A stretch of 64,000 nucleotides of DNA from an uncultured bacterium (GCA_963825135.1 CAWGRW010000009.1:2304001-2368000); one strand, 5' to 3'; positions 6,582-29,531 are shown, counted from the stretch's first letter. Notes: a model not told the origin generated them from the sequence alone. Translations and numbers: made by a program.

Positions 6582-6797
6582 GTTGTTTAGCTTTTGTCTT
6601 TAGACCTATTTACCCCATACCTCTGGCCGCTCTTCTCCTCGCAAACCTGGGAGGGCGGCTTGTTTCACAAGGAGCGGGTTCTGATTGAATGATAGTTAGC
6701 GGATTCGAAAAGTAGGCACGAAAATGCTGATTCACCTTTCCAGGTTAATGCATTCGGCCGATGATCGTTTCCGGATTCATAGAAGGGGGTGATAAAT

Positions 6798-6959
6798 ATG
6801 TTGAGCTGGGCTCTGACGTTTCTTGTAGTTGCCGTTATAGCAGCCGTTCTCGGGTTCACCGGTATTGCAGGAGCTGCAGCCGGTATCGCGAAGATATTGT
6901 TCGTGATATTCCTCGTGATTTTTGTAGTATCGCTCGTATTCGGCAGACGCGCGGTCTAG
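6798..6959 (+). CDS. DUF1328 family small membrane protein (53 aa)
   Basis: Manual translation [53 protein letters not shown]; below the ORF-track cutoff. Confidence 0.9.
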
Positions 6960-7014
6960 GCTATGTCGTTTGAATGGTCCAGGGGCTCCGGACATGGATC
7001 GGGCCGGAGTAATA

Positions 7015-7899
7015 TTATATGTTCGAATGAATCCTCGCTGAAAAATATCCGGACACGTTCGCTACCTGGGACAGTGCTATTAACAAAGAGAGGAACGTCT
7101 TATAACGGCATGAAGTCTTCCAGGGATAGAGTATCAAACCGGTGTAAAATTTCACGGGCTCAATCTTCAATGTATTCCGGCTCCGGCTAGCCCGGATATT
7201 GTGGAACTTATATGCGCCCTGTCCGTAATTAAAATGCTGCTTGAAGAATCCGCTCAGAGTAAGCGGGTGTGAGTGGCGCACTATAGCATCAGGGGCATAA
7301 ATCGTTTTATAACCGCAGTAGAGGTACCTGTCACAGAACTCCCTGTCTTCGGCTGCGGCGATTGGAAAAGTAGTATCGAATCCCCCGACTTTGAGGAATT
7401 GCTCTTTGGATAGGGCCATATTGTTTGAGGCTATGAACCTGGCTTCGTCCCTATTATTGTAGTAGGAATAGAGGAAGTCGGAGATCAGCTGGCTCGCAGT
7501 CGAATAGGAGTTGTCGGGCAGATCGTTGACTGTCCGTCCCGCGACTAATAGTTCAGGGTTTTGATTTAACGCATCTTCTAATTTTGTAAGCCAGTGCCGG
7601 GACGGCTTACAGTCATCGTCGGTAAATGCGAGGTATTTGCCGCTCGACTCCTCAGCGCCCCTGTTTCGCGCGGTAGCCGGCCCCGCATTGTCCTGCCTGA
7701 ACAGCTTTACGTTGATCCTCTTCCGAAACGCTCCGACAATTTCTTCGAGAGAGGTCTTGCTCCCGTCATCGACGACGATCACCTCGAAGCCGTCCCCGGG
7801 GTAAGCGATCTCGGCCGCCGAGTCCAGGCACTCTTTAAGCTGCTTCGGACGCCCGAAGGTCGGAATAACGATTGAGAAACGGGGTTCAAGCCGGTTCAT
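7015..7899 (-). CDS. Glycosyltransferase family 2
   Basis: SIVIPT, VVDDGS, NAGPATARN, FTDDDC, EDREF motifs. Confidence 0.93.
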   Translation of the reverse strand: MNRLEPRFSIVIPTFGRPKQLKECLDSAAEIAYPGDGFEVIVVDDGSKTSLEEIVGAFRKRINVKLFRQDNAGPATARNRGAEESSGKYLAFTDDDCKPSRHWLTKLEDALNQNPELLVAGRTVNDLPDNSYSTASQLISDFLYSYYNNRDEARFIASNNMALSKEQFLKVGGFDTTFPIAAAEDREFCDRYLYCGYKTIYAPDAIVRHSHPLTLSGFFKQHFNYGQGAYKFHNIRASRSRNTLKIEPVKFYTGLILYPWKTSCRYKTFLSLLIALSQVANVSGYFSARIHSNI

Positions 7900-8095: not shown

Positions 8096-9619
8096 TTAGA
8101 TGTCGAGCTTTTGTCCCGTCATAGCGGCAGGGACAGGCTCTCCCAGGAGTGACAAAAAAGTCGGGGCGATGTTCAGAACCTCTATGTCGTCGATCTTTCC
8201 GCGTTTTTTTACGGAAGGTCCTGACAACGCGATGAATCCGTGAGCCGAATGGTCGCTTCTCCTGAAGAATTCGGGTCTTTTCTGTCTTATTTCTGCCTCG
8301 GGATGAACTACCCGCTCCATGAAGCTTCCGGGCTTCCATTCGACAAATATATCCGGTAGATACTCGTGCGGGGCACAATTAAAAATCTCCACGGCTTTAT
8401 TGACGGAGACGACGGCGGGTTCGCCCGTCGCAGGGTCGATCAATTTAAATAGCTCTCGCGTGATTCTATCAATCAGAGCGTGGTATTCATCTCCCGGTTC
8501 TACGATGCCCCGGGGTTCACGTCCCTTGAGATTGATACGTATGAAGCTCGTGTACGAGACAGGTATTGAAAAAGCCGTAGTCCGGTCCCAATCCGTTCCC
8601 TTCCTGAAGATGTCGGAGACCAATTGCTCCCTCTGCTCTCTGGACATTCGCTTGCTGAGCGCGATCCGCACCGATTCGGGGAGGAGTCTGCGCGCTATGT
8701 CTATGGGACTGAAGGAATACGGGCCGCTCTCGGGTGTCGCCTGATAGCCGAATTGTCTGCAAAAGGCTTCTCCCAGGCCCGCATTTGGAAAATCGTCTTC
8801 CATGCCGACCGAAGACACGATGCAGATGTTAGGGTTGTCGAATTTGTCGAGTGTCTGCCCGATCTCCGCGTCGATCGCCTTGTATACGTCTCTGATGGCA
8901 TATGTCAGTTCGCAATCTACATCTCCTATATCTCTGTTTTTCGGATGGTATTTCCAGAATTGATGATTCGCGGCGTGAGATTCGGCGAAGATCATTAAAG
9001 AGAGATCGAATCTGTCCCGGTCGATGAGATGACGGCACATCTCGCCTTTTATCCTGACATTTTCGATGAGTCTTCTATGGAGCTCTAAATCCTGTTCATA
9101 CGTGCTGCCGTGGTTCTCTTTCATCATCAGCTTGGCCCCGAACTTCCTGCTTATATCGTCAATGACATCGGGCGGTTCGGATGCGGTAACAAAATGGTAC
9201 GGGTCCCAATTATGGTGAGTCGCCCAGTTTGCGACCTGGATTCCCTTAAGCCCTTTATAGAGGCCCGTGTCGGCTGCATCGATAACAAGGGTTTTTTTAT
9301 TCGTTCCGATTAAATGTGACCAGAGGGGAGGGGCGTCTATATCGAGTCCCGTGACGGATTTTAGATCATAAGCCCCGGGTATTAATTGTCTGAAGTAGTA
9401 ATAACCGTGCCGGCCGCGGGAAATGCCGCTTAAGAGTGAGATCCATACTCCGTGCTCCGTAACCAGCTCCGGCCCCGCTGTCCTGCCCCATAAGCCGGTT
9501 TTCATGATGGAGGAAATGTTCGGCAAATGACCCTGATCGGCCCACTCTTCAATGAATATAGGATCACCGGCGTCTAAGCCTATGATAACCAGGGGAGGGC
9601 GTTCTTTATCGGGCGTCAT
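8096..9619 (-). CDS. Alkaline phosphatase superfamily (nucleotide pyrophosphatase/phosphodiesterase-like) protein
   Basis: IIGLDAGD...LPNI, HGYYYF, INLKGREPRGIV, SDH...IAPTFLSLLG. Confidence 0.85.
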   Translation of the reverse strand: MTPDKERPPLVIIGLDAGDPIFIEEWADQGHLPNISSIMKTGLWGRTAGPELVTEHGVWISLLSGISRGRHGYYYFRQLIPGAYDLKSVTGLDIDAPPLWSHLIGTNKKTLVIDAADTGLYKGLKGIQVANWATHHNWDPYHFVTASEPPDVIDDISRKFGAKLMMKENHGSTYEQDLELHRRLIENVRIKGEMCRHLIDRDRFDLSLMIFAESHAANHQFWKYHPKNRDIGDVDCELTYAIRDVYKAIDAEIGQTLDKFDNPNICIVSSVGMEDDFPNAGLGEAFCRQFGYQATPESGPYSFSPIDIARRLLPESVRIALSKRMSREQREQLVSDIFRKGTDWDRTTAFSIPVSYTSFIRINLKGREPRGIVEPGDEYHALIDRITRELFKLIDPATGEPAVVSVNKAVEIFNCAPHEYLPDIFVEWKPGSFMERVVHPEAEIRQKRPEFFRRSDHSAHGFIALSGPSVKKRGKIDDIEVLNIAPTFLSLLGEPVPAAMTGQKLDI

Positions 9620-9693: not shown

Positions 9694-11193
9694 TCAGTGC
9701 TGACAAACGCTGCTTTTGCCTGATGGGACTGGTCTGAAGAGCAGCAGCTTCCGGAGGAAATAATTCTCCTTCTCGAAGAGCGCGGGATCGTCGCCGGGAT
9801 TTGATACCCGTTTATCTGTGCCTGCCCTGACATATTCGAGCTTGTTTTTATCGGATACGAAATTATAGTTCATGCTCATATAGCGTCTGAGCTCGAAATA
9901 TGGAAGTAAATATCCTTTTTCATGAAGAGCGTTGAGACGGGGGTCGGAGGAATACTTTATATCCACCAGGTCGTTCTGAAAATCAGCCAGGTAGTATGGA
10001 CGGCGCATTATCAAATGATTAGTACGCCCTCCTTCGGTATGCAGGTTGCTGAACATGGACCATGCGGTTTGTGTTTTGAGGCCGAGATAGGGGCTTGAAC
10101 CGTTGATAGCGACGAAGAGAGGGAACAACATTAATATTTTATAGCCGGGAATAAAATATCGACGCGTCTCATAGTGCGGGGGTTTTCCCCTTCGCAGTGA
10201 AATTAGGAATACTGCAATTATAGCGCTGCCGAATAATCCCCAGAGCACAAGGAATGCGTAGTAAAGTCTCGTTTTCCCGAGTTTCCCGACGTCCATCGGA
10301 TCTACGAAAGGTTGAACACTCGGATATTTTAATTTTGTGTAAATAAAGAGAGCTAAACAGGCGGCGCCCGTCATTATAAGAATCGGCGCTTTCACTTTAC
10401 CAATTAATTGTGGAACAGGGGGGAATTTATACATTTTCGGGATCCCAAAGTCATGCCACAGCCCTAGTAAATTTTCCGTAATATTGTCCGGGGTGAATAG
10501 AAACAGCAAGGCATATGTGACACCCGAAAAGTTATAGTATTCGAACATTCCCAGAATAAAATGGAAGACCAGTGCGATGACGATTCCGGCTGTACGCAGC
10601 CTGCTCGTTAGGAGAAAAAAGAGTATAGCGCATTCCACGATCAGGGTTCCGTATATGGGCATGGTTTCCGAGAACAAGGGCGCTTGAAAGAATCCCGGAT
10701 GATCGAACGATGATAAAAGTATTTTTGTTCCGCAGCTGACGGCCGGATCAAACCAATCAGTGTTGAGTTTGTGAAAGAGGGTGAAGAAGTAGAGTAAAAC
10801 GAGTTCGAGCCGCAGAGCGGGAGTGAACGTGTCAAATAATCTGGACCTATCAATACTTATGCCCCTGGCTGAGATGATAAGGATAAGTGCTGATACCAGA
10901 ATCGTAAGGTTAACTATCGACGCGAACAGCCAGTGGTTTGGAATCCACGGCATTTTGTCAAAGGCGTCGATGAGTTGCAATATTATTAATATGTAAAACC
11001 TGTAAGACGAGGAGGGTCTCAAAATAACGGATACAGCCGAGACTCCGAGCGCGAAAGATACCGGGGAGTGAAGCCAGATGTTCCACTTCCCGAGGTGAAA
11101 AATTACGGCTGCCGCCCACAGGAATGAAAATAAAGTGAATCTATCGTCCGATAATGATTTTTCTCGCGTCGTCTTTATCTTGCTAATATTCAT
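9694..11193 (-). CDS. Multi-pass membrane protein, HTTM/vitamin-K-dependent carboxylase-like
   Basis: NHW, YFFTLFHKLNTDW, FH motifs and C-terminal WSMFSNL; many TM segments. Confidence 0.65.
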   Translation of the reverse strand: MNISKIKTTREKSLSDDRFTLFSFLWAAAVIFHLGKWNIWLHSPVSFALGVSAVSVILRPSSSYRFYILIILQLIDAFDKMPWIPNHWLFASIVNLTILVSALILIISARGISIDRSRLFDTFTPALRLELVLLYFFTLFHKLNTDWFDPAVSCGTKILLSSFDHPGFFQAPLFSETMPIYGTLIVECAILFFLLTSRLRTAGIVIALVFHFILGMFEYYNFSGVTYALLFLFTPDNITENLLGLWHDFGIPKMYKFPPVPQLIGKVKAPILIMTGAACLALFIYTKLKYPSVQPFVDPMDVGKLGKTRLYYAFLVLWGLFGSAIIAVFLISLRRGKPPHYETRRYFIPGYKILMLFPLFVAINGSSPYLGLKTQTAWSMFSNLHTEGGRTNHLIMRRPYYLADFQNDLVDIKYSSDPRLNALHEKGYLLPYFELRRYMSMNYNFVSDKNKLEYVRAGTDKRVSNPGDDPALFEKENYFLRKLLLFRPVPSGKSSVCQH

Positions 11194-21769: not shown

Positions 21770-23659
21770 TCACCATGAGAGCGTAGTGACTTCCCGCTCA
21801 ACTATCATAAGCATTCGGGAGAAATTGCGCAACAGATTTTGGAGAAGCGTCATCTTCACCGTGGGATTCGTTTCACCCAGCTCATCGAATGCAGTCGTAG
21901 AGAGTAGGTAGCACTCTACGTGTTTATCGGCACGGACGTCTGCTGACCGTACCGTGCGGTTCACTACCGCAATCTCACCGAATGCCATACCGGGAGAAAG
22001 GGTCGATAACCGTTTGATCTGACCGTTAGGCAGATCGACTATAACACTAACTTCACCGCTCATGAGCAAGTAAATTTCATCCGCCGGCTCTCCCTTTCGT
22101 ACTATGAGCTCTCCGGGGTCGTAACGTTTGCTCGTGAGCAAAGGTTCCAGGAACGCGACGGCTTCAGGCGCGAGCCCCCGGCAAAGGTCATGCTCGGCCA
22201 GTGTCACCGACTCAAGAGAGCTGTCCTCGGGTTGCTGACTGGCTATCAAACGGTTCTCGCACCACTCGATGGCAATATCCATATCAGGGAAAATGTGCAG
22301 CCAAGCCTCCTGCTGATCATCGGTGTTAAGCTGCTCTTCTAAAAATCTGACAAAATTCGGGTGCTTCTGTAAGTTCACCAATAAAAGGTGTTTTCCACAA
22401 CTCTCGAAAGTCTTAATTAGTTCGAGCAGGGTCTGCGCGGACGAATCCTCAATATGTGTTACTCGCTTGAAGTCGATAACAGCTATGTCTGTCGTATCGC
22501 TAACATCGACTATCCTGCGGACCGTCACTTCCACAGCGGAAAAAACAAGATCACCCTGTAACTCATATACTTTCGCCCGCATGCCCGATTTATCGAGAAT
22601 TTCCGCATCACGCTCACCACGTAGTCGCTTGGACCTGATCTTGGAGACATCGTACTGTGCCCGAATCGCAGCACGCGAGGAACGCGGAACGCGAAGGCAG
22701 TGCAGGTTAAAATCCTTCGAAAGGTTCTTGCAAACCTCAATCCCTCGGACGCTGTTCCCGCGTGCATCGAGAGGAGGCGAGAAAACGCCGATCCCGGCTT
22801 GCCCCGGCATAACCGCCATTATTCCTCCTGACACGCCGCTCTTTGCGGGTATGCCGATCCAGTACATCCACTCACCCGCGTAGTCATACATACCGCAAGT
22901 GGTCATGATGCTCATTATGTTCTCAACGAGTTCGTCGCGAATTGCGCGCTCCTTCGTAAGCGGGTTGATTCCGCCGTTCGCCAAAGAGGCCGCCATCAAG
23001 CTCAGGTCTCGACAATCAATGGAGATTGAGCACTGCCGAAAATAGAGATCGAGCGCTATATCAGGATCTTCGCTCAGTATGTTGAAGTTACGTAGCATAT
23101 GACCGATGGCACGGTTACGATGGCCTGTTTCTCTCTCGGACCTGTACACAGTGGCATCTATGGAAAGCTTGCGGCCGGCGTAGACGGAGAAAACTCCCAA
23201 GAGACGATCCAACTTGTCCTTGCCGGAATTTCCGGCCACTAGAGACGTTGTAGCGATAGCACCGGCGTTGATCATGGGGTTGAACGGACAGCCGGTTTCC
23301 GGCGCGAGGCTGATCGAGTTGAAGGCATCGCCGGTCGGCTCAACCCCAATCTTGTCGAGCACCGCCTCTATGCCTCGATCTTCAAGAGCAATGCCATACA
23401 CGAACGGCTTTGAAATCGACTGAATCGTGAAGGGCTGACGAGTATCGCCGGTTTCGTAGACCCGGCCGTCGGTGGTAGCGATGCTGATACCAAACCAGTT
23501 AGGGTCCGCCTTAGAAAGCTCCGGGATATAGGTAGCGATCTTTCCGTCTTGCAGCTTCGTGCATTTTGCGTGCAGGCGCTCTAGGTACGCCTGAATGGGA
23601 GATTTGACTTGATGGCTCTCTCCTGTGTTCCTGCTTTGCACCGCGCGTCCTAACAGCAT
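21770..23659 (-). CDS. glsA: Glutaminase A with STAS and cNMP-binding domains
   Basis: TIQSISKPF, NPMINAGAI, PAKSGVSGG; IDFKRVTHIEDS (STAS); FGEIA...RSADV (cNMP); RBS favours ATG at 23659. Confidence 0.92.
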   Translation of the reverse strand: MLLGRAVQSRNTGESHQVKSPIQAYLERLHAKCTKLQDGKIATYIPELSKADPNWFGISIATTDGRVYETGDTRQPFTIQSISKPFVYGIALEDRGIEAVLDKIGVEPTGDAFNSISLAPETGCPFNPMINAGAIATTSLVAGNSGKDKLDRLLGVFSVYAGRKLSIDATVYRSERETGHRNRAIGHMLRNFNILSEDPDIALDLYFRQCSISIDCRDLSLMAASLANGGINPLTKERAIRDELVENIMSIMTTCGMYDYAGEWMYWIGIPAKSGVSGGIMAVMPGQAGIGVFSPPLDARGNSVRGIEVCKNLSKDFNLHCLRVPRSSRAAIRAQYDVSKIRSKRLRGERDAEILDKSGMRAKVYELQGDLVFSAVEVTVRRIVDVSDTTDIAVIDFKRVTHIEDSSAQTLLELIKTFESCGKHLLLVNLQKHPNFVRFLEEQLNTDDQQEAWLHIFPDMDIAIEWCENRLIASQQPEDSSLESVTLAEHDLCRGLAPEAVAFLEPLLTSKRYDPGELIVRKGEPADEIYLLMSGEVSVIVDLPNGQIKRLSTLSPGMAFGEIAVVNRTVRSADVRADKHVECYLLSTTAFDELGETNPTVKMTLLQNLLRNFSRMLMIVEREVTTLSW

Positions 23660-23875
23660 ATATCCCCCTGTATTGGTACTCAACGGTGGCAATATGGATG
23701 CCAGTGGAAAGAATTCGTAATCTACCATTATAAGGAGGGACGAGTAATATAAAGAAATTGCGCGTAAGGTCTGCTAAGAACGAATAAATATTTAACAGAT
23801 GAGATGGCAGGAAAATAATCCTATCAGTTATGTATCTGATCATTTGTGCTTAGGTTAAATTACTCTGTGCGAAAA

Positions 23876-24268: not shown

Positions 24269-25018
24269 ATGAAACTGCATATATTAGGCTCTGGAACTTG
24301 CGTTCCCAATATTAGAAGAGGATCGTCAGGCTACGCGCTTGAGCTTTCCGAATCGACAATTTTACTTGACTGCGGTAGCGGTACTACATGGAAATTAGGT
24401 ATGGTCGGCGTTGATTATCTTACAGTGGACCATATCTTTATAACCCACTTTCATCCCGATCATACTGCAGATTTAATCCCGTTCTTATTTGCAACAAAAT
24501 ATCCTCACCCCACTAAAAACCGGGAAAAACCCCTTGTTATATGGGGCCCAAAAGGTTTTACAGAGTTCTACTCATCTTTAAAGTTAGCCTTCCACGATTG
24601 GATTGCTCCGGATAACTTGACTATCAAAGAAATAACTGAGGAACCGTTGAGGCTGGACGATTTTGTTTTGGTCGCCCGAAATACATTTCATACGGAAAAC
24701 AGCGTTGCCTACAGGATAGAATCTGGCGGAAAATCAATAGTATACTCCGGGGACACGGGATACACCGATTCATTGATTGAGCTTGCAACAGGTGTGGATT
24801 TGTTAATCGTCGAATGCTCATTTCCCGATGAACTTAAATTTTACGCCCATCTTACCCCAAGCGAAGTCGGAATGATTGCAAGTGCGTCAAAGGCTAAAAA
24901 AATTATTCTGACACACCTTTATACTGATTGTGATGAGATAGACATTATCGGGCAAGTTAGAGAGTATGTAGACGTGGATGTAATTCTCGCCGAGGATTTG
25001 ATGGAAATCGATATATAA
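24269..25018 (+). CDS. MBL-fold metallo-hydrolase (RNase Z/AtsA-like)
   Basis: LGSG, LDCGSG, THFHPDH, YSGDTG, LTHLY motifs. Confidence 0.9.
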   Translation: MKLHILGSGTCVPNIRRGSSGYALELSESTILLDCGSGTTWKLGMVGVDYLTVDHIFITHFHPDHTADLIPFLFATKYPHPTKNREKPLVIWGPKGFTEFYSSLKLAFHDWIAPDNLTIKEITEEPLRLDDFVLVARNTFHTENSVAYRIESGGKSIVYSGDTGYTDSLIELATGVDLLIVECSFPDELKFYAHLTPSEVGMIASASKAKKIILTHLYTDCDEIDIIGQVREYVDVDVILAEDLMEIDI

Positions 25019-25336
25019 GTCTCCCTGTTTATAAAAACCTGCCGTGTAAACGATAAGGCGCGTGATGCCGTCGATCTGCTGGGAATAACTTATTTTGGGT
25101 CTAAAGCGAAGTTGGAGTGTGCTCGGACGTCGTATGAGGAAGTGTCCAAAGAACTTCAGCTCTCGTTCCCTCTTCAACCGGCGCCGGGAGCCGAGTTCCA
25201 GAAGGCCCTGGACCAAGCACAGCCGGAACTAAAAGAACGCGTCTACTCAGCCTCACGGTTCGACATTAGAATGCATACCCTAGACGGCATGCTCGATGCC
25301 GTGGTGAGATGGTGAAATAACGCACTGCCGAATTGC

Positions 25337-25594
25337 TCAGAGCATCATGCTCAACTTAAGCTCACGTACAGGAGGCAGCCAAATCACGTCACAGTACAAC
25401 AATTTCCCTTTGTTGTCATAATGGCAATCTAGGCAAAGCCTTCCGTCATCACTGCATTTCATTTCTTGCGGAATTATAACCTGACCATCCGTACGGTCGA
25501 CCTTGCCCGTCTGAAGCAAGTAGCGCTCACCCATCTTGTCGAGCGAGAATTCTGCGGTAAATCCTGGAATAGCCATTTTATACAATTCGCTCAC
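25337..25594 (-). CDS. Putative precursor peptide 3 (IPGFTAE leader, 4-Cys core)
   Basis: MAIPGFTAEFSL...VIIPQ leader shared with neighbours; start could be 25594, 25585 (TTG) or 25576 (ATG). Confidence 0.7.
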   Translation of the reverse strand: MSELYKMAIPGFTAEFSLDKMGERYLLQTGKVDRTDGQVIIPQEMKCSDDGRLCLDCHYDNKGKLLYCDVIWLPPVRELKLSMML

Positions 25595-25720
25595 CTCCTT
25601 TCGGATTCTTGCACATACCTAAAATTTTCACACACCTCACGGTGCATATTTGCAGCACATCCCGGTTTCCCCCCTGTTCATCGCATCTCAGGCGGGGCTT
25701 GAGTGAAAGAACGGTTCTTC

Positions 25721-26017
25721 TCACCAAGGCCAAATGCATCGCGTGCATGGTGTTTCGCAGCAATCCCAGTGACAAATGGGGTTACATCTCATGTGATATT
25801 CGCAATTGCAACACCAGCTGTCCCAGCAGCCCCAAGCGTTTAAGCCGCCTACCCCTCCTAACCCCCCCAAGCCGCCACCAACCCGTATTTGTGAAATGAC
25901 TCTTTGCTCTCCGCTACTACAACCTTGAGTCGCTACAGACTGGTAGCGCCTGCTCGTCTTGTAGAGTGAAGTATCTGCGGTAAATCCCGGAATAGTCATT
26001 TTATACAATTCGCTCAC
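25721..26017 (-). CDS. Putative precursor peptide 2 (10 Cys, 6 Trp core)
   Basis: MTIPGFTADTSLYKTSRRY...RVISQ, Gly-rich linker, WGCWDSWCCNC...PCTRCIWPW; ATG at 25999 is an alternative start. Confidence 0.8.
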   Translation of the reverse strand: MSELYKMTIPGFTADTSLYKTSRRYQSVATQGCSSGEQRVISQIRVGGGLGGLGGVGGLNAWGCWDSWCCNCEYHMRCNPICHWDCCETPCTRCIWPW

Positions 26018-26143
26018 CTCCTTTCGGATTCTTGCACATACCTAAAATTTTCACACACCACACGGTGCATATTTGCAGCACATCCCGTTTTCCCCACCGT
26101 TCATCGCATCTTAGGCGGGGCTTGAGTGAAAGAACGGTTCCTC

Positions 26144-26443
26144 TCACCAAGGCCAAATGCACCGCGTGCATGGTTCGCACACCTGCTGCTGACACTCGCA
26201 TACATAACGGCCGTCTCCGGTAGGCCAGCAGGGGCCCCAAGCAACACATCTGCAGCATTCAGACTCCCAGCAGCCCCAAGCGTTTAAGCCGCCTGCCCCT
26301 CCTACCCCCCCCAAACCGCCACCAACCCGTATTTGTGAAATAACTCTTTGCTCTCCGCTACTACGACCTTGAGTCGCTACAGACCGGTAGCGCCTGCTCG
26401 TCTCGTGGAGTGAAGTATCTGCGGTAAATCCTGGAATAGTCAT
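26144..26443 (-). CDS. Putative precursor peptide 1 (10 Cys, 6 Trp core)
   Basis: GGAGGT RBS; MTIPGFTADTSLHETSRRY...RVISQ, Gly-rich linker, WGCWESECCRC...PCTRCIWPW. Confidence 0.82.
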   Translation of the reverse strand: MTIPGFTADTSLHETSRRYRSVATQGRSSGEQRVISQIRVGGGLGGVGGAGGLNAWGCWESECCRCVAWGPCWPTGDGRYVCECQQQVCEPCTRCIWPW

Positions 26444-26476
26444 TTCATTTACCTCCCTATAGAGTGATTTTCGATC

Positions 26477-27412
26477 TTATCGGTCATAGTACGGTGATAA
26501 CTTGCTGACCAGGAATGGAAATTCCTCGGTCACATCCACGCGAATAAAGAACTTTTCGGTGACATCGGTATTGCGGTTCGTGAAAGAGAATATTACCTCA
26601 ACGATTTTGCGCGTGCTGCTGAGAGGCGAAGGACGCACCTCAACCGCTGTCAAAGATTGGTTTTGAGCGAAGGCTTCTGCCGCCCTGGCGTAGATTCCAC
26701 TGCATCGCACCGCTGAATAGTTTAGGGCGCGATGTTCATCTGTCGCTCCCCCATTATCAGCCATCTGCATTATCCTCAGGAACAGTTCCTCTGCAGCGGG
26801 TGTGAAATCTTTTGTGGCAATTTCCTTTGGTTTTGGAATAGACTTTATCAAAGAGTCGATGTCGAATGAATACATCTGGTCGAACACTACAATGGGAACC
26901 ATAAGCCCATTGCACATCTCAGGCGGGGCAATTGGTCCCCTTAAGCCAATCACCACATCAATATCTGTGAGACGCGAAGAGTGTAGGGAGTCCACCAGCT
27001 GATCATAGCTCGTTTGGTCGCGAGGAAGTAGTACGTAGGTTTCCAAACCCTCAATGGTAAACACCCAACATAACTGCCGCACAAGGTAGCGGTTCTTTGG
27101 CTCAGACAGAATCTTGTGAAGGGCCTGCCGGTCTGTGAGCCCGGCTGTATCTCCTCGTCCGGTGGCTTGGGCAAATTCCTTTTCCACCGACAGCCGTGGA
27201 CAAACCGCGTTGACTCTGCCAAGTGCATATATGTAGGAAGGGGGCGTAGAAGCAGTTCCGTCTCCACAAGTGGGGCAGCTTCCCTGGTCGGTCTGCGGAG
27301 AGATAGTCGTTTTTGCATGACCATTGCCAGGAGATTTAGAAATTGCCAATGTGTCCTTCATATTTACAGCTTGGTCTCCCAACTGTTCTTTCACTTCATC
27401 ATTCTGTTCCAT
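26477..27412 (-). CDS. Stand-alone PatG/PatA C-terminal DUF protein (PatG_D + PatG_C-like)
   Basis: YIYALGRV, LCWVFTIEG..TYVL, DNGGATDEHRALNY, VEVRPSPLS, FFIRVDVTEEFPFLV parallel the cyanobactin protease C-terminal domain; AGGAG RBS before ATG at 27412. Confidence 0.8.
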   Translation of the reverse strand: MEQNDEVKEQLGDQAVNMKDTLAISKSPGNGHAKTTISPQTDQGSCPTCGDGTASTPPSYIYALGRVNAVCPRLSVEKEFAQATGRGDTAGLTDRQALHKILSEPKNRYLVRQLCWVFTIEGLETYVLLPRDQTSYDQLVDSLHSSRLTDIDVVIGLRGPIAPPEMCNGLMVPIVVFDQMYSFDIDSLIKSIPKPKEIATKDFTPAAEELFLRIMQMADNGGATDEHRALNYSAVRCSGIYARAAEAFAQNQSLTAVEVRPSPLSSTRKIVEVIFSFTNRNTDVTEKFFIRVDVTEEFPFLVSKLSPYYDR

Positions 27413-27494
27413 AATATTTCTCCTCTTTTTGAGATATATTTGAAAGACTCTGTGTATCCATTTACTCGGGGCACATCGCAATTCCTCTCTACAT

Positions 27495-27686
27495 TTAACG
27501 CCGCCCGGAGAGAACTATCCATCGGTTCAGCGCCGCGGCACGACGTTCGCAGCTGCCGCATTGCCTGATTCCGACCGCGGTTGTTGCTCGCTTGATCACG
27601 TCCCCAAGCCCGATGTCCTCATCGGCGGTGAATCCCGGAAGTCGCACTCTGTAAGGCCGGCCTTTCCTTGTCTCATCTTTTTTCAT
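27495..27686 (-). CDS. 63-aa hypothetical protein with LPGFTAD and CxxC motifs
   Basis: Overlaps the protease stop; AGGAGA RBS; RVRLPGFTADEDIGLGD...CGSCERRAAALN. Confidence 0.7.
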   Translation of the reverse strand: MKKDETRKGRPYRVRLPGFTADEDIGLGDVIKRATTAVGIRQCGSCERRAAALNRWIVLSGRR

Positions 27687-28641
27687 GTTGCTTTCTCCTA
27701 AAGTTGACCTTCATGACCTGATATGCTCTCTCAACATCCAATAAAGGCGGGACAACCGTAGCCCGCCGCCGGGCGTGTGCTTGTGCTGCCGCTAGTTTCA
27801 CTTGAGCTGAGGTTGCGGAGGGAAATTCGGACCATAGAAGTGCGATTGCACCTGTTACAAATGGCGCTGCAGCGCTCGTCCCTCCGAATGTGTGTGATTT
27901 GCCATTAGTTCCCAAACTTGTAATGTTGTCACCAGGGGCGCTTAGACCTCTCCTGCCTATCGAGCTTCCGAGATTCGAATAGATAAGCGGTCTTCCTTGA
28001 TTGTCACATGCAATAACAGGAATTACCCAGGGATGGCGCGTGATAGCGGAGCTTCCGATTGTTCCTTGATTTCCCGCAGCCGCAACAATAATAGTTCCGC
28101 GCATTGCGGCATAATCTAGAGATTCTTCTAATTTGCGCTCACCCTTAGACGAAGGTTGTGCAAGGGCAGCACTCAGGTTGATCACGTTTGCGCCTGCATC
28201 AACTGTCTCGATAATCGCCTCTGCTAGTTCATCTGGAGTCGCACTTGGCATTTGTCCGTTCTCAGACGGCTCTGCGAAGATCGGACGTACCAGCAGGGTG
28301 CAATCGGGACATATTGATGGGGCTTTGGAACCTCGCTCTCCGCACAATATACCTGCTACAAATGTTCCGTGCATACAGGCAGTGCTGCTCGCAAGTGCGC
28401 ACGCACATGAAAGTTTCCCCGGGATCTCACGAATATTCTCATTGGAGAGGTTGGGGTGGTTCAAAAAGACTGGTCCGTCTATTAGACCAATCATAATCTC
28501 AGGCTTACCTCTGCTGAGTTTCATAAGCCCAATGAGATTTAGTAAATCCAGGGGGCTTATTGAGTTTGAACTATTAGGCGATTGTTCTGAGGTACTTCGA
28601 GTAGTCTGATCCTCAGTAAACCCGCATTCGAGTACAATCAT
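27673..28641 (-). CDS. S8 subtilisin-like serine protease, PatA/PatG protease-domain type
   Basis: IGLIDGPV (Asp), MHGTFVAGIL (His), AAAGNQG (oxyanion Asn), GGTSAAAPFVTG (Ser); no signal peptide. Confidence 0.92.
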   Translation of the reverse strand: MIVLECGFTEDQTTRSTSEQSPNSSNSISPLDLLNLIGLMKLSRGKPEIMIGLIDGPVFLNHPNLSNENIREIPGKLSCACALASSTACMHGTFVAGILCGERGSKAPSICPDCTLLVRPIFAEPSENGQMPSATPDELAEAIIETVDAGANVINLSAALAQPSSKGERKLEESLDYAAMRGTIIVAAAGNQGTIGSSAITRHPWVIPVIACDNQGRPLIYSNLGSSIGRRGLSAPGDNITSLGTNGKSHTFGGTSAAAPFVTGAIALLWSEFPSATSAQVKLAAAQAHARRRATVVPPLLDVERAYQVMKVNFRRKQHEKR

Positions 28642-28742
28642 ATTCCCATCACCCTAAAAAAGTCAGAGTAAAAGGGAAATCACTTATATGCTAGATTGCA
28701 ACTTAGACACACAGGAAGGTGTAAAATTTTTTGAGATCTAAC

Positions 28743-28830
28743 TATTGCAATCCAGCCGCCTTAAACATCAAGTTCTTAGGCCTGTGACTTTGCGTCCCAC
28801 TCTTTCGAATGGTTTGCCCTTTTAGTCTAG
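28743..28830 (-). ncRNA. Cyclic di-GMP-I (GEMM) riboswitch
   Basis: Minus strand reads AGGGCAAACCATTCGAAAGAGTGGGACGCAAAG-TCACAGGCCTAAG...GGCGGCTGGATTGC, matching the Vc2-type aptamer as I recall it; lies 5' of the S8 protease gene. Confidence 0.92.
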
Positions 28831-28834
28831 AGTG

Positions 28835-28864
28835 AGACTAACACAAAGATGTCAATAATGTCAA
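28835..28864 (-). promoter_or_regulatory. Sigma-70-like promoter upstream of the riboswitch
   Basis: TTGACA (28864-28859), 18 nt, TGn-TAGTCT; implied start site falls near the aptamer 5' end; a second TTGACA lies 9 nt downstream. Confidence 0.5.
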
Positions 28865-28901
28865 CAACTATTTTCTTGAATGAAAATAAAAAATTTTATA
28901 C

Positions 28902-29094
28902 TGACCTGCCCCCCCTGTAATAGTTCCATAAGTTAAGTTGGATTTTCGATAAAGAACCCTATATACGGGAGTTCATCGGAATGGCGAGGAATCGTTACAC
29001 TGCAGAGCAAATAATAAGGCATTTAAGACAAGCAGAAGTTCTCTCTTCTCAGGGCAGGAGTGTGTCGGATCTTCATTTAAGGAAAAGATATTGA
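28902..29094 (+). mobile_element. IS3-family (IS407-group-like) left end and truncated OrfA
   Basis: TGACCTGCCCCC terminal repeat at 28902; ATG at 28981 gives MARNRYTAEQIIRHLRQAEVLSSQGRSVSD then an early stop. Confidence 0.75.
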
Positions 29095-29262
29095 AACTTT
29101 AGCCACTTCAGGCGGTTCAGCCATAAATGATGTATACGAGTTAACATAAAGAATTAATTTGTAAACGGTCGTTTATGAAACACAGCCCCGTGTGCTTGCA
29201 ATCCATTTTGACCTTGCCACAATCTGCTGATCGTACAACCGGTGACAGTAACAGCCATTTTG

Positions 29263-29531
29263 AAACCTATGGGCTCTCCGAGTCGGGCTTGGAGGGCGGC
29301 GATTAAGAAAGCTAATTTACGGGTTTACGTATTCACGATCTGCGACACGCGTTCGCTACGAGGGTAGGGGAGGCAGGTTTTCCAGTGCAGACTATTCAAG
29401 CACATTTCCGGCACAGTGATGTCCGAGCCTCAATGCGATACGTGCATCCGGGGCAGTCTTTTCGGGATGCAGTCGAAAACGTGTCACTGACTTCTACTGA
29501 CTTTTCGCAGAAAAAAGAGGGAAAAAACTGA
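29263..29531 (+). pseudogene. Tyrosine recombinase/integrase C-terminal remnant
   Basis: KPMGSPSRAWRAAIKKANL, frameshift near 29320, then GLRIHDLRHAFATR...HFRHSDVRASMRYVH; N-terminus absent. Confidence 0.85.

Follow-up and report, generated by a model that had tools for sequence, protein, structure and literature searches.

This analysis concerns a putative peptide-maturation operon in a 64,000-nucleotide stretch of DNA from an uncultured bacterium (GCA_963825135.1 CAWGRW010000009.1:2304001-2368000), which in its whole length we call the window and from whose first letter all window positions are counted. On the minus strand, from 28828 to 25337, the sequence reads as a single operon that begins with a class I riboswitch for cyclic diguanylate (c-di-GMP-I) and continues with genes for an S8 serine protease, a 63-amino-acid (aa) protein with a CxxC motif, a stand-alone version of the domain of unknown function of the cyanobactin protein PatG (PatG-DUF, or simply the DUF), and three small precursor peptides with a common leader. 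A prediction made earlier from the sequence alone (the original prediction) had named these elements, and scans for open reading frames (ORFs) and with Rfam and Pfam recovered every one of them in its place on the minus strand. The leader scores below come from a hidden Markov model (HMM).

28743..28828, minus strand: c-di-GMP-I riboswitch aptamer (Rfam RF01051)
28642..28742, minus strand: expression platform, from the aptamer to the S8 start codon (RNA fold prediction only)
27673..28641, minus strand: PatA/PagA-type S8 serine protease, 322 aa (Pfam Peptidase_S8, 2e-25)
27495..27686, minus strand: conserved small CxxC protein, 63 aa (homologs lie between the S8 and DUF genes; no curated family)
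26477..27412, minus strand: stand-alone PatG-DUF protein, 311 aa (Pfam PatG_D, 1e-28, and PatG_C, 2.5e-33)
26144..26443, minus strand: precursor 1, 99 aa (leader HMM, E 1.1e-9)
25721..26008 (TTG start) or 25999 (ATG start), minus strand: precursor 2 (leader HMM, E 5.1e-11)
25337..25585 (TTG start) or 25576 (ATG start), minus strand: precursor 3 (leader HMM, E 1.4e-6)

The three precursors share the pattern M-x-IPGFTA(D/E)-x-SL...Y...VI(S/IP)Q, starting with M-(T/A)-IPGFTA(D/E), and run on into tails rich in Cys and Trp. In precursor 1, a leader of 37 aa up to VISQ is followed by a Gly-rich linker and then by a core that holds 10 Cys and ends in CTRCIWPW. Precursor 2 has the same kind of leader, with one extra Cys in it, and a core that differs in its center and again holds 10 Cys, and precursor 3 joins a leader ending in VIIPQ to an unrelated core with 4 Cys. 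In precursors 2 and 3, a TTG codon (26008 and 25585) lies nine bases 5' of the ATG and is better spaced to the GGAGG box. The leader HMM, built from other genomes, found these three and no others at E<0.01 among the 85,116 stop-to-stop frames of the 3.1-Mb genome, the next frame having an E of 0.25, and this specificity excludes chance. Precursors 1 and 2 arose by recent tandem duplication: they agree in DNA sequence at 170 of 179 positions (95.0%) through leader and linker and at 148 of 155 (95.5%) through the last codons and a 130-nt spacer, and at 26 of 90 (28.9%) in the central core, so that the pair is a hypervariable cassette between conserved flanks. Their core type, NAWGCW...CTRCIWP(W/Y), is rare, with 7 homologs. 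Neither the repeats between the precursor genes (z -1.16 and -1.47) nor the sequence after the last gene (z -1.40) showed significant structure.

The same arrangement is found in many other genomes. Relatives of the DUF protein number at least 7,999 at E<=0.001 with clustering at 90%, and in a library clustered at 50% identity 1,918 proteins match the DUF profile at 1e-3 and 597 at 1e-30; the best 120 relatives are 61-100% identical, 276-356 aa long and, if they have a name at all, listed as "hypothetical protein" or under automatic PatG labels. With one genome taken per species, the DUF protein is encoded at 388 loci, and the best 80 of these plus the window make up the 81 loci of our synteny set, a selection biased toward loci most like the window's DUF protein. 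These best 80 come from Acidobacteriota, isolates of Nitrosospira and Nitrosovibrio, Methylobacter luteus, cyanobacteria, Brocadia, Nitrospira, Planctomycetes, Chloroflexota and a Methanoperedens archaeon, and further carriers are Streptomyces, Mesorhizobium and rhizobial plasmids. Leader genes, one to seven per locus, are present at 80 of the 81 loci, and at the exception the sequence stops 146 bases past the DUF gene. All but one of the 238 leader hits share the strand of the DUF gene, 225 of them following that gene and 12 falling between S8 and DUF. This result upholds the proposed linkage of PGFTA-type leader genes to the S8 and DUF genes. Among the 69 loci with at least 1.6 kb of upstream sequence, an S8 gene, sought on the same strand within 3.5 kb, stands upstream of the DUF gene in 67, and the small protein stands between the two in 61.

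No further conserved neighbor emerged across the 81 loci when ORFs of at least 90 aa were clustered: the most frequent was ABC-ATPase-like and found at 6 loci, and the remaining large clusters came from reading the cassette genes in alternative frames. The lack of a YcaO protein, oxidase, prenyltransferase, radical-SAM enzyme or exporter, which the original prediction had reported for the single island, extends to the whole set, in which none of these is conserved beside the cassette, nor is any other known tailoring family. The separation of protease and DUF into two genes, by contrast, had been taken for a peculiarity of this locus and is not: it is the common architecture of a huge family, with which closely related fused S8-DUF proteins coexist. 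One carrier is the conjugative plasmid pEmeITTGR7b of Sinorhizobium mexicanum ITTG R7 (L103, 3736-6623), where the S8 gene is annotated and the DUF gene called "hypothetical"; its gene table, which is known to be incomplete and from which the original record may differ, lists neither the small CxxC gene nor any of the four to five precursor genes.

Over 225 precursors, the leader has an N-terminal box conserved (in percent) as P97 G78 F95 T68 A95 E76 x S85 L81 Y54 ... Y86 and, after about a dozen variable residues, a C-terminal box of V/I 83, x, P88, Q54/A26. The median leader is 35 aa and the median core 51 aa, with Cys making up 11.6% of the core versus 3.9% of the leader. Beyond the leader only cysteines are conserved, the cores being hypervariable in length, spacing and composition. 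The number of Cys is even in 202 of the 238 whole precursors (11 of them without Cys) and in 183 of the 191 cores that a crude regular expression could separate from their leaders (5 of them without Cys); these sequences are kin, so that the counts are not independent and no p-value should be leaned on. Even counts fit disulfides, as pairwise bonding predicts, and the pattern points to disulfide-bonded cores, while the conserved (V/I)-x-P-(Q/A) motif would fit a cut behind the conserved Q. Of 2,874 candidates, 1,724 proteins matched a profile of 70 full precursors at E<=0.001; none of them has a Pfam domain, and among the matches listed all source names are "hypothetical protein". No NCBIfam or Pfam family matches the three window precursors or any of 37 leaders from 35 loci; 0 of the 37 leaders match a PatE-type or other curated precursor model, which agrees with the original view that the leaders are unrelated to PatE.

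The protease of the window carries the motifs LIDG (Asp), HGT (His), AGNQG (Asn) and GTSAAAP (Ser), which align with those of PagA and PatA, and it begins without a hydrophobic N-terminus, signal peptide or prodomain; the alignment and inspection of the N-terminus agree with the complete D/H/N/S set and the missing signal peptide noticed at first sight. Its closest solved structures are PagA (4H6W, 9.5e-34) and PatA (4H6V, 3.8e-31; 3ZXX and 3ZXY, about 1e-31), compared with about 1e-15 for generic subtilisins and 1e-11 for the macrocyclase domain of PatG. NCBIfam TIGR03895 gives 110.5 bits, under the full-length cutoff of 421 because the model spans the DUF too. A second S8 of the PatA type is absent from the genome, in which the next S8 match (2.6e-10) lies 1.6 Mb away. 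PatA cleaves after G(L/V)E(A/P)S, with an aliphatic P4 and Ala or Pro at P2, according to one report (PMC10885120), and if the cassette protease cuts behind the second leader box, that box shares with the PatA site the aliphatic P4 and the Pro/Ala P2. Cysteines absent from PagA and PatA mark the S8 proteins of the cassette family: of 70 intact homologs, 61 have C-x(5-12)-C-x-HGT and 62 have CP(D/G/N)C at 10-40 residues past the catalytic His, and these cysteines may form a four-Cys metal or redox site beside the active site.

The ORF of the small protein overlaps the S8 stop by 14 nt and encodes a CGSC motif. Its family has the signature (Y/H)RVRLPGF(I/L/V)-x-(D/E)E-(I/V)GLGD-x-(I/V)K(R/K)-x-T...GI-x-PCGGC-x-(R/K)RAAALNRW, and a CxxC is present in 61 of 64 homologs. 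No curated family of Pfam, NCBIfam or PADLOC matches it over cutoff, and its Atlas neighbors are all called "hypothetical protein" and have no Pfam family. It is absent from the cyanobacterial loci and the Methanoperedens locus, where the S8 gene abuts the DUF gene. Like the precursor leaders it contains (hydrophobic)-PGF, which in this genome reads LPGFTAD, and because small protein and leaders have this motif in common, it is probably a docking signal. At the DNA level, the LPGFTAD codons (27621-27640) form a 20-nt repeat with 90% identity to the leader codons at 25550-25569, 25973-25992 and 26417-26436; small proteins of other genomes have LPGF(I/L/V)-x-(D/E) instead of LPGFTAD, and the repeat may reflect local gene conversion or chance.

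For the DUF protein we read the ORF from the ATG at 27412, behind a GAGGAG ribosome-binding site, the longest ORF extending to 27481. The region 26477..27412 does match the PatG domains, as the original prediction had it. The protein consists of a disordered N-terminus with a CPTC motif (residues 1-55 are disordered in AlphaFold2, AF2) followed by PatG_D and PatG_C, and its sequence profile has a sole match in the PDB, 4UVQ, at 9.5e-6. An AF2 model computed with 68 diverse homologs reached a predicted local distance difference test score (pLDDT) of 89.2 and a predicted template modeling score (pTM) of 0.80, superseding a run with 17 close homologs (pLDDT 50.4). It aligns to the PatG DUF (4UVQ) with Z 22.6 and a root-mean-square deviation of 2.9 A over 244 residues at 20% identity (Foldseek E 1.5e-15); the modeled protein thus has the PatG-DUF fold. 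Folds other than 4UVQ gave matches only in the tool's chance range, and we draw no function from them. For the N-terminal half these matches (Z 5.6-7.4) are to OB-fold proteins (SSB, PriB and anticodon-binding domains), the pertussis-toxin chain 6ro0_C and SilF, and for the C-terminal half (about Z 6) to cystatin-like or propeptide-like folds. Complex predictions of the DUF with the leader scored 0.07 and 0.17 versus a mark of 0.32, were run without controls, and speak neither for nor against binding.

A CxxC or CxC motif occurs in the DUF N-terminus at 57 of 81 loci; a link between this motif and the presence of the small protein, sought with a crude regular-expression count, was not borne out. 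Many Asp, His, Arg, Asn and Cys residues are invariant across 17 diverse members. Among nine long relatives of the DUF that we examined, five are fused behind an S8 domain, two have an S8-domain tail and two lie behind a JmjC/cupin domain. If a domain is fused to differing catalytic domains such as S8 and JmjC, it behaves like an adaptor, and we infer that the DUF is a substrate-recruiting module. In the two JmjC/cupin proteins (P0220 and P0241), a PatG-DUF with an N-terminal CxxC stretch follows the oxygenase domain, an architecture of which we found no mention in the literature searched. In cyanobactin work, the 2014 structure paper leaves the DUF without an assigned function (PMC4259220), and a 2025 paper still speaks of a "Domain of Unknown Function" (PMC12639078). 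The DUF protein has no match in the phage collection, and among PADLOC defense models neither it nor the small protein nor one precursor has a match at E 0.1 or better; the S8 domain alone matches, to generic subtilase/IetS models.

Comparison with related genomes marks the cassette as a difference at this site. The window's genome has a single PatG_C domain, which a search found in 0 of 9 genomes of the same genus, 0 of 32 of the same family and 3 of 6 genomes of another family in the order. In that other family, the same split cassette recurs in G048 and G052 with as many as seven precursors, and in G038 a single gene of 637 aa fuses S8 to the DUF and has no ORF of the leader type near it. 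On contig C24 of the congener G009, the match to query 1-2509, which holds the glutaminase and MBL genes, stops at 8563, and the match to query 6787-7126, next to a tRNA-Thr gene, begins at 8650, 87 bases on; with its flanks this close together there, 25009-29285 of the window is an insertion or deletion difference.

25009..29285, strand not applicable: about 4.3 kb with the whole cassette and riboswitch, absent from the congener's syntenic site (comparison with G009 contig C24)
29571..29645, minus strand: tRNA-Thr(CGT) flanking the insertion (ARAGORN; Rfam tRNA, 71.5 bits)
28981-29531: transposase-like and integrase-like short scraps (HTH_Tnp_1 fragment, E 0.0042, below cutoff)

The scraps at 28981-29531 hint weakly at remnants of mobile-element genes, and one of them looks integrase-like by its motif only. 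About 170 bases at 28899-29069, placed between the riboswitch's promoter region and the integrase-like scraps and overlapped by the weak HTH_Tnp_1 fragment, recur at numerous sites in every genome of the genus with 74-86% identity and look like a small dispersed repeat or a remnant of an insertion sequence. Just outside the insertion, 21770-23728 on the minus strand encodes a 652-aa protein with glutaminase, STAS and cyclic-nucleotide-binding domains, by its domains a signaling-coupled glutaminase. Promoter and terminator scans found no more sites than in shuffled sequence, and no RNA sequencing run is listed for the window, for which there are 16 DNA runs, each with a share of at most 0.14.

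The aptamer 5' of the cassette is complete (RF01051 model positions 1-87) and scores 77.6 bits versus a gathering threshold of 35 (E 1.6e-13), on the same strand as the S8 gene and 101 nt 5' of its start codon. It can be aligned with nine further c-di-GMP-I aptamers of the same genome, ten in all, and is 82-94% identical to other aptamers within the genus; the other nine include copies 5' of PilM, SLT-SPOR transglycosylase, CBM96, PilZ-aminotransferase and GSDH-like genes. The RNA from 28620 to 28850 is predicted to fold at -72 kcal/mol (z -4.48 versus 200 shuffles), and the expression platform is predicted to contain two elements, a helix that would compete with the aptamer's 3' half and a hairpin masking the Shine-Dalgarno region. 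Given that the aptamer resembles other aptamers of the genus, and that this genome has ten of them, the incoming cassette appears to have been placed under the resident type of riboswitch.

When the 81 loci were searched with a model built from the genome's ten aptamers, a riboswitch was found at 4, the window and three Brocadia loci, always upstream of S8; Rfam assigns those of Brocadia to RF03167 (c-di-GMP-I-GGC, 65.2 bits, twice) and RF01051 (57.9 bits). No Rfam riboswitch accompanies the G048 and G052 cassettes. Judged by these sequence comparisons, the c-di-GMP link of the cassette is local and arose at least twice. The original prediction was right to count a riboswitch as part of the system in the window, although across the family the link is not general. 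At one Brocadia locus (L018), a second c-di-GMP-I-GGC aptamer (9977-10098, 62.4 bits) lies 3' of the precursor genes. At another (L055; 3270-3400, 4646-5626, 6507-6654 and 6923-7951), the DUF gene and the small gene are each present in two copies, with a match to group II intron D1-D4 (RF02003, 75.1 bits) between the duplicate copies and a c-di-GMP-I aptamer 5' of the sole S8 gene. We found no description in the literature of a peptide-maturation operon as a riboswitch target, although a report in a subscription journal may have escaped us.

The anatomy of this system is firmly established by comparison, and upon it a mechanism can be proposed. The locus would be a self-contained, horizontally acquired peptide-maturation cassette that makes three precursors of about 80-100 aa, each with a leader of about 35 aa that offers two anchors, a (hydrophobic)-PGFTA(E/D)-x-SLY...Y box and then a (V/I)-x-(P/S)-(Q/A) box. 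The N-terminal PGFTAE box would dock the precursor on the DUF, the small protein or both, and the cytoplasmic PatA-type S8 protease, by analogy, would recognize the second box, cut behind it and free the core. The PatG-DUF and the 63-aa CxxC protein would then be obligatory partners, most likely leader holders or builders of a protease complex rather than enzymes. The freed cores would form disulfides and become stable peptides acting outside the cell, probably bacteriocin-like or signaling molecules. If the c-di-GMP-I riboswitch gates expression of the operon, peptide production would be coupled to the surface and biofilm program of the other nine riboswitches. We lean somewhat toward this reading as a whole, in which the S8 protease frees disulfide-rich peptides from their leader with the help of the DUF and the CxxC protein. 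More tentative, and in our estimate doubtful, is its boldest extension, that protease, PatG-DUF and CxxC protein form a leader-docking and perhaps oxidative-folding machine, a prokaryotic counterpart of the conotoxin library with thousands of disulfide-rich, hypervariable peptides that all follow one conserved leader, spread by gene transfer across phyla and into archaea and switched by c-di-GMP in some lineages.

Several observations weigh against the proposed mechanism. The protease is cytoplasmic, having no signal peptide, no exporter is conserved near the 81 loci, and release of a membrane-active peptide in the cytoplasm would be risky for the producer. An odd Cys count is found in 36 of 238 precursors, and 47 of the 238 leader hits are without a P(Q/A), SQ or AQ box, as judged by a crude regular expression. 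The conservation of the DUF (61-79% identity across phyla, with many invariant polar residues) exceeds what is usual for a simple scaffold, and in the structure paper the cyanobactin PatG DUF showed no binding of the PatE precursor by nuclear magnetic resonance (PMC4259220). Finally, the riboswitch is limited to 4 of the 81 loci.

There are three rival readings. The conservation of the DUF could mean that the protein, by itself or together with the CxxC protein, catalyzes a novel modification of the core, for example cysteine-based cross-links, before the protease finishes the product, which would define a new class of modified ribosomal peptides. The DUF is always present and extremely conserved, both in its 120 top relatives (61-100% identical) and in the invariant Asp, His, Arg, Asn and Cys of the 17 diverse members; all three proteins have conserved Cys motifs (S8 in 62 of 70, the small protein in 61 of 64, the DUF in 57 of 81); and an even Cys count is compatible with any pairwise cross-link, not with disulfides alone. 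Yet the DUF model beyond 4UVQ gives nothing but chance-range matches (Z up to 7.4), to binding-type folds such as OB-like ones, no cofactor-binding family is detected with Pfam or NCBIfam, and the cores share no fixed motif for an enzyme to recognize. We regard an enzymatic DUF as unlikely.

The absence of a conserved exporter and the cytoplasmic protease would be accommodated if the peptides stayed inside the cell as metal-binding or redox-active molecules that removal of the leader activates. The richness of the cores in Cys and Trp agrees with such a role, as does the presence of many metal-hungry nitrifiers, methanotrophs and anammox organisms among the carriers of the best 80 loci (Nitrosospira, Methylobacter, Brocadia, Nitrospira and Methanoperedens). 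That carrier list is biased, however, and also includes Acidobacteriota, cyanobacteria, Streptomyces and rhizobial plasmids; metal sites need no even number of Cys and are usually conserved, whereas these cores are hypervariable, and the other c-di-GMP riboswitches of the genome govern surface and secreted functions, all of which makes an intracellular role improbable to us. We give equally little credence to a leader that serves mainly to target or export the peptide through recognition by the DUF and the small protein, with the S8 protease cutting helpers or another site, such as the Gly-rich linker. The small protein, which is no substrate, has the (hydrophobic)-PGF too, so that the motif would be a docking signal, a long Gly-rich linker does follow VISQ in precursors 1 and 2, and the second box is unclear in the 47 leader hits mentioned above. 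Such a tag would leave unexplained a second box whose spacing from the first is constant, which is conserved (V/I 83%, P 88%, Q/A 80%) and which resembles the PatA site at P4 and P2, and the S8 protease is the sole catalytic domain that is always present.

There is a high chance that the cassette family is undescribed: we found no description of the leader motif or of a stand-alone family of this kind, in line with the original impression that no characterized example existed, although a report in a subscription journal may have escaped us. If the leader-docking machine described above is real, this three-protein system would give the DUF of the cyanobactin pathways a testable function. The family is the least complicated natural context for studying the role of that domain. 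Its cores amount to a natural collection of cysteine-rich peptides behind one short shared leader and one protease, attractive for peptide discovery and engineering, and the window adds a link from c-di-GMP signaling to peptide production that is seen independently in Brocadia. Cultured carriers are at hand in the plasmid of Sinorhizobium mexicanum ITTG R7, Mesorhizobium and Streptomyces plasmids, and strains of Nitrosospira and Methylobacter.

Set beside known systems, the control region is that of a c-di-GMP-I (GEMM-I) regulon, with a full-length, high-scoring aptamer in a genome whose other nine precede pilus, cell-wall and secreted-protein genes, but its target here is a peptide-maturation operon. 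The cassette resembles class I lanthipeptide and class II bacteriocin maturation in its conserved leader, dedicated protease and several paralogous precursors per operon, and some of its cores are hydrophobic and rich in Gly, Ala and Cys, as membrane-active bacteriocins are. It differs from NisP/LanP-type and C39 systems in that no LanB, LanC, LanM or C39-ABC exporter is conserved nearby and in its cytoplasmic protease, whose closest solved structures are PagA and PatA, generic subtilisins being much more distant; its leader also appears to lack double-glycine and FNLD-type boxes. Conotoxin genes encode a conserved signal and pro-region followed by a hypervariable, disulfide-rich mature peptide, and animal gene families of this type share with the cassette a conserved N-terminal region, a hypervariable core with even Cys numbers and tandem paralogs. 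This is a likeness of design only, as the cassette encodes unrelated proteins, belongs to prokaryotes and has a leader that is no signal peptide.

The closest comparison is with the cyanobactin pathways, in which the leader protease PatA carries a DUF at its C-terminus, the macrocyclase PatG carries one too, and PatE is the precursor. Cassette and pathways both have an S8 protein nearest the PagA/PatA leader proteases, a second protein with the PatG-DUF (PatG_D plus PatG_C), precursors built of a leader and then a variable core, in which near-identical flanks enclose hypervariable cassettes, a presumed cut site with an aliphatic P4 and Pro or Ala at P2, and no dedicated exporter. The cassette, unlike those pathways, has no macrocyclase (second S8), heterocyclase, oxidase or prenyltransferase; its protease and DUF are separate genes with the 63-aa CxxC protein between them; its cores are 30-130 aa long with 4-10 or more Cys, whereas cyanobactin cores are 6-20 aa; its precursors have neither a PatE-type leader nor a shared C-terminal box or recognition sequence; and it is found in many phyla and an archaeon rather than mainly in cyanobacteria. 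Although it is no cyanobactin pathway, the cassette resembles the first step of one.

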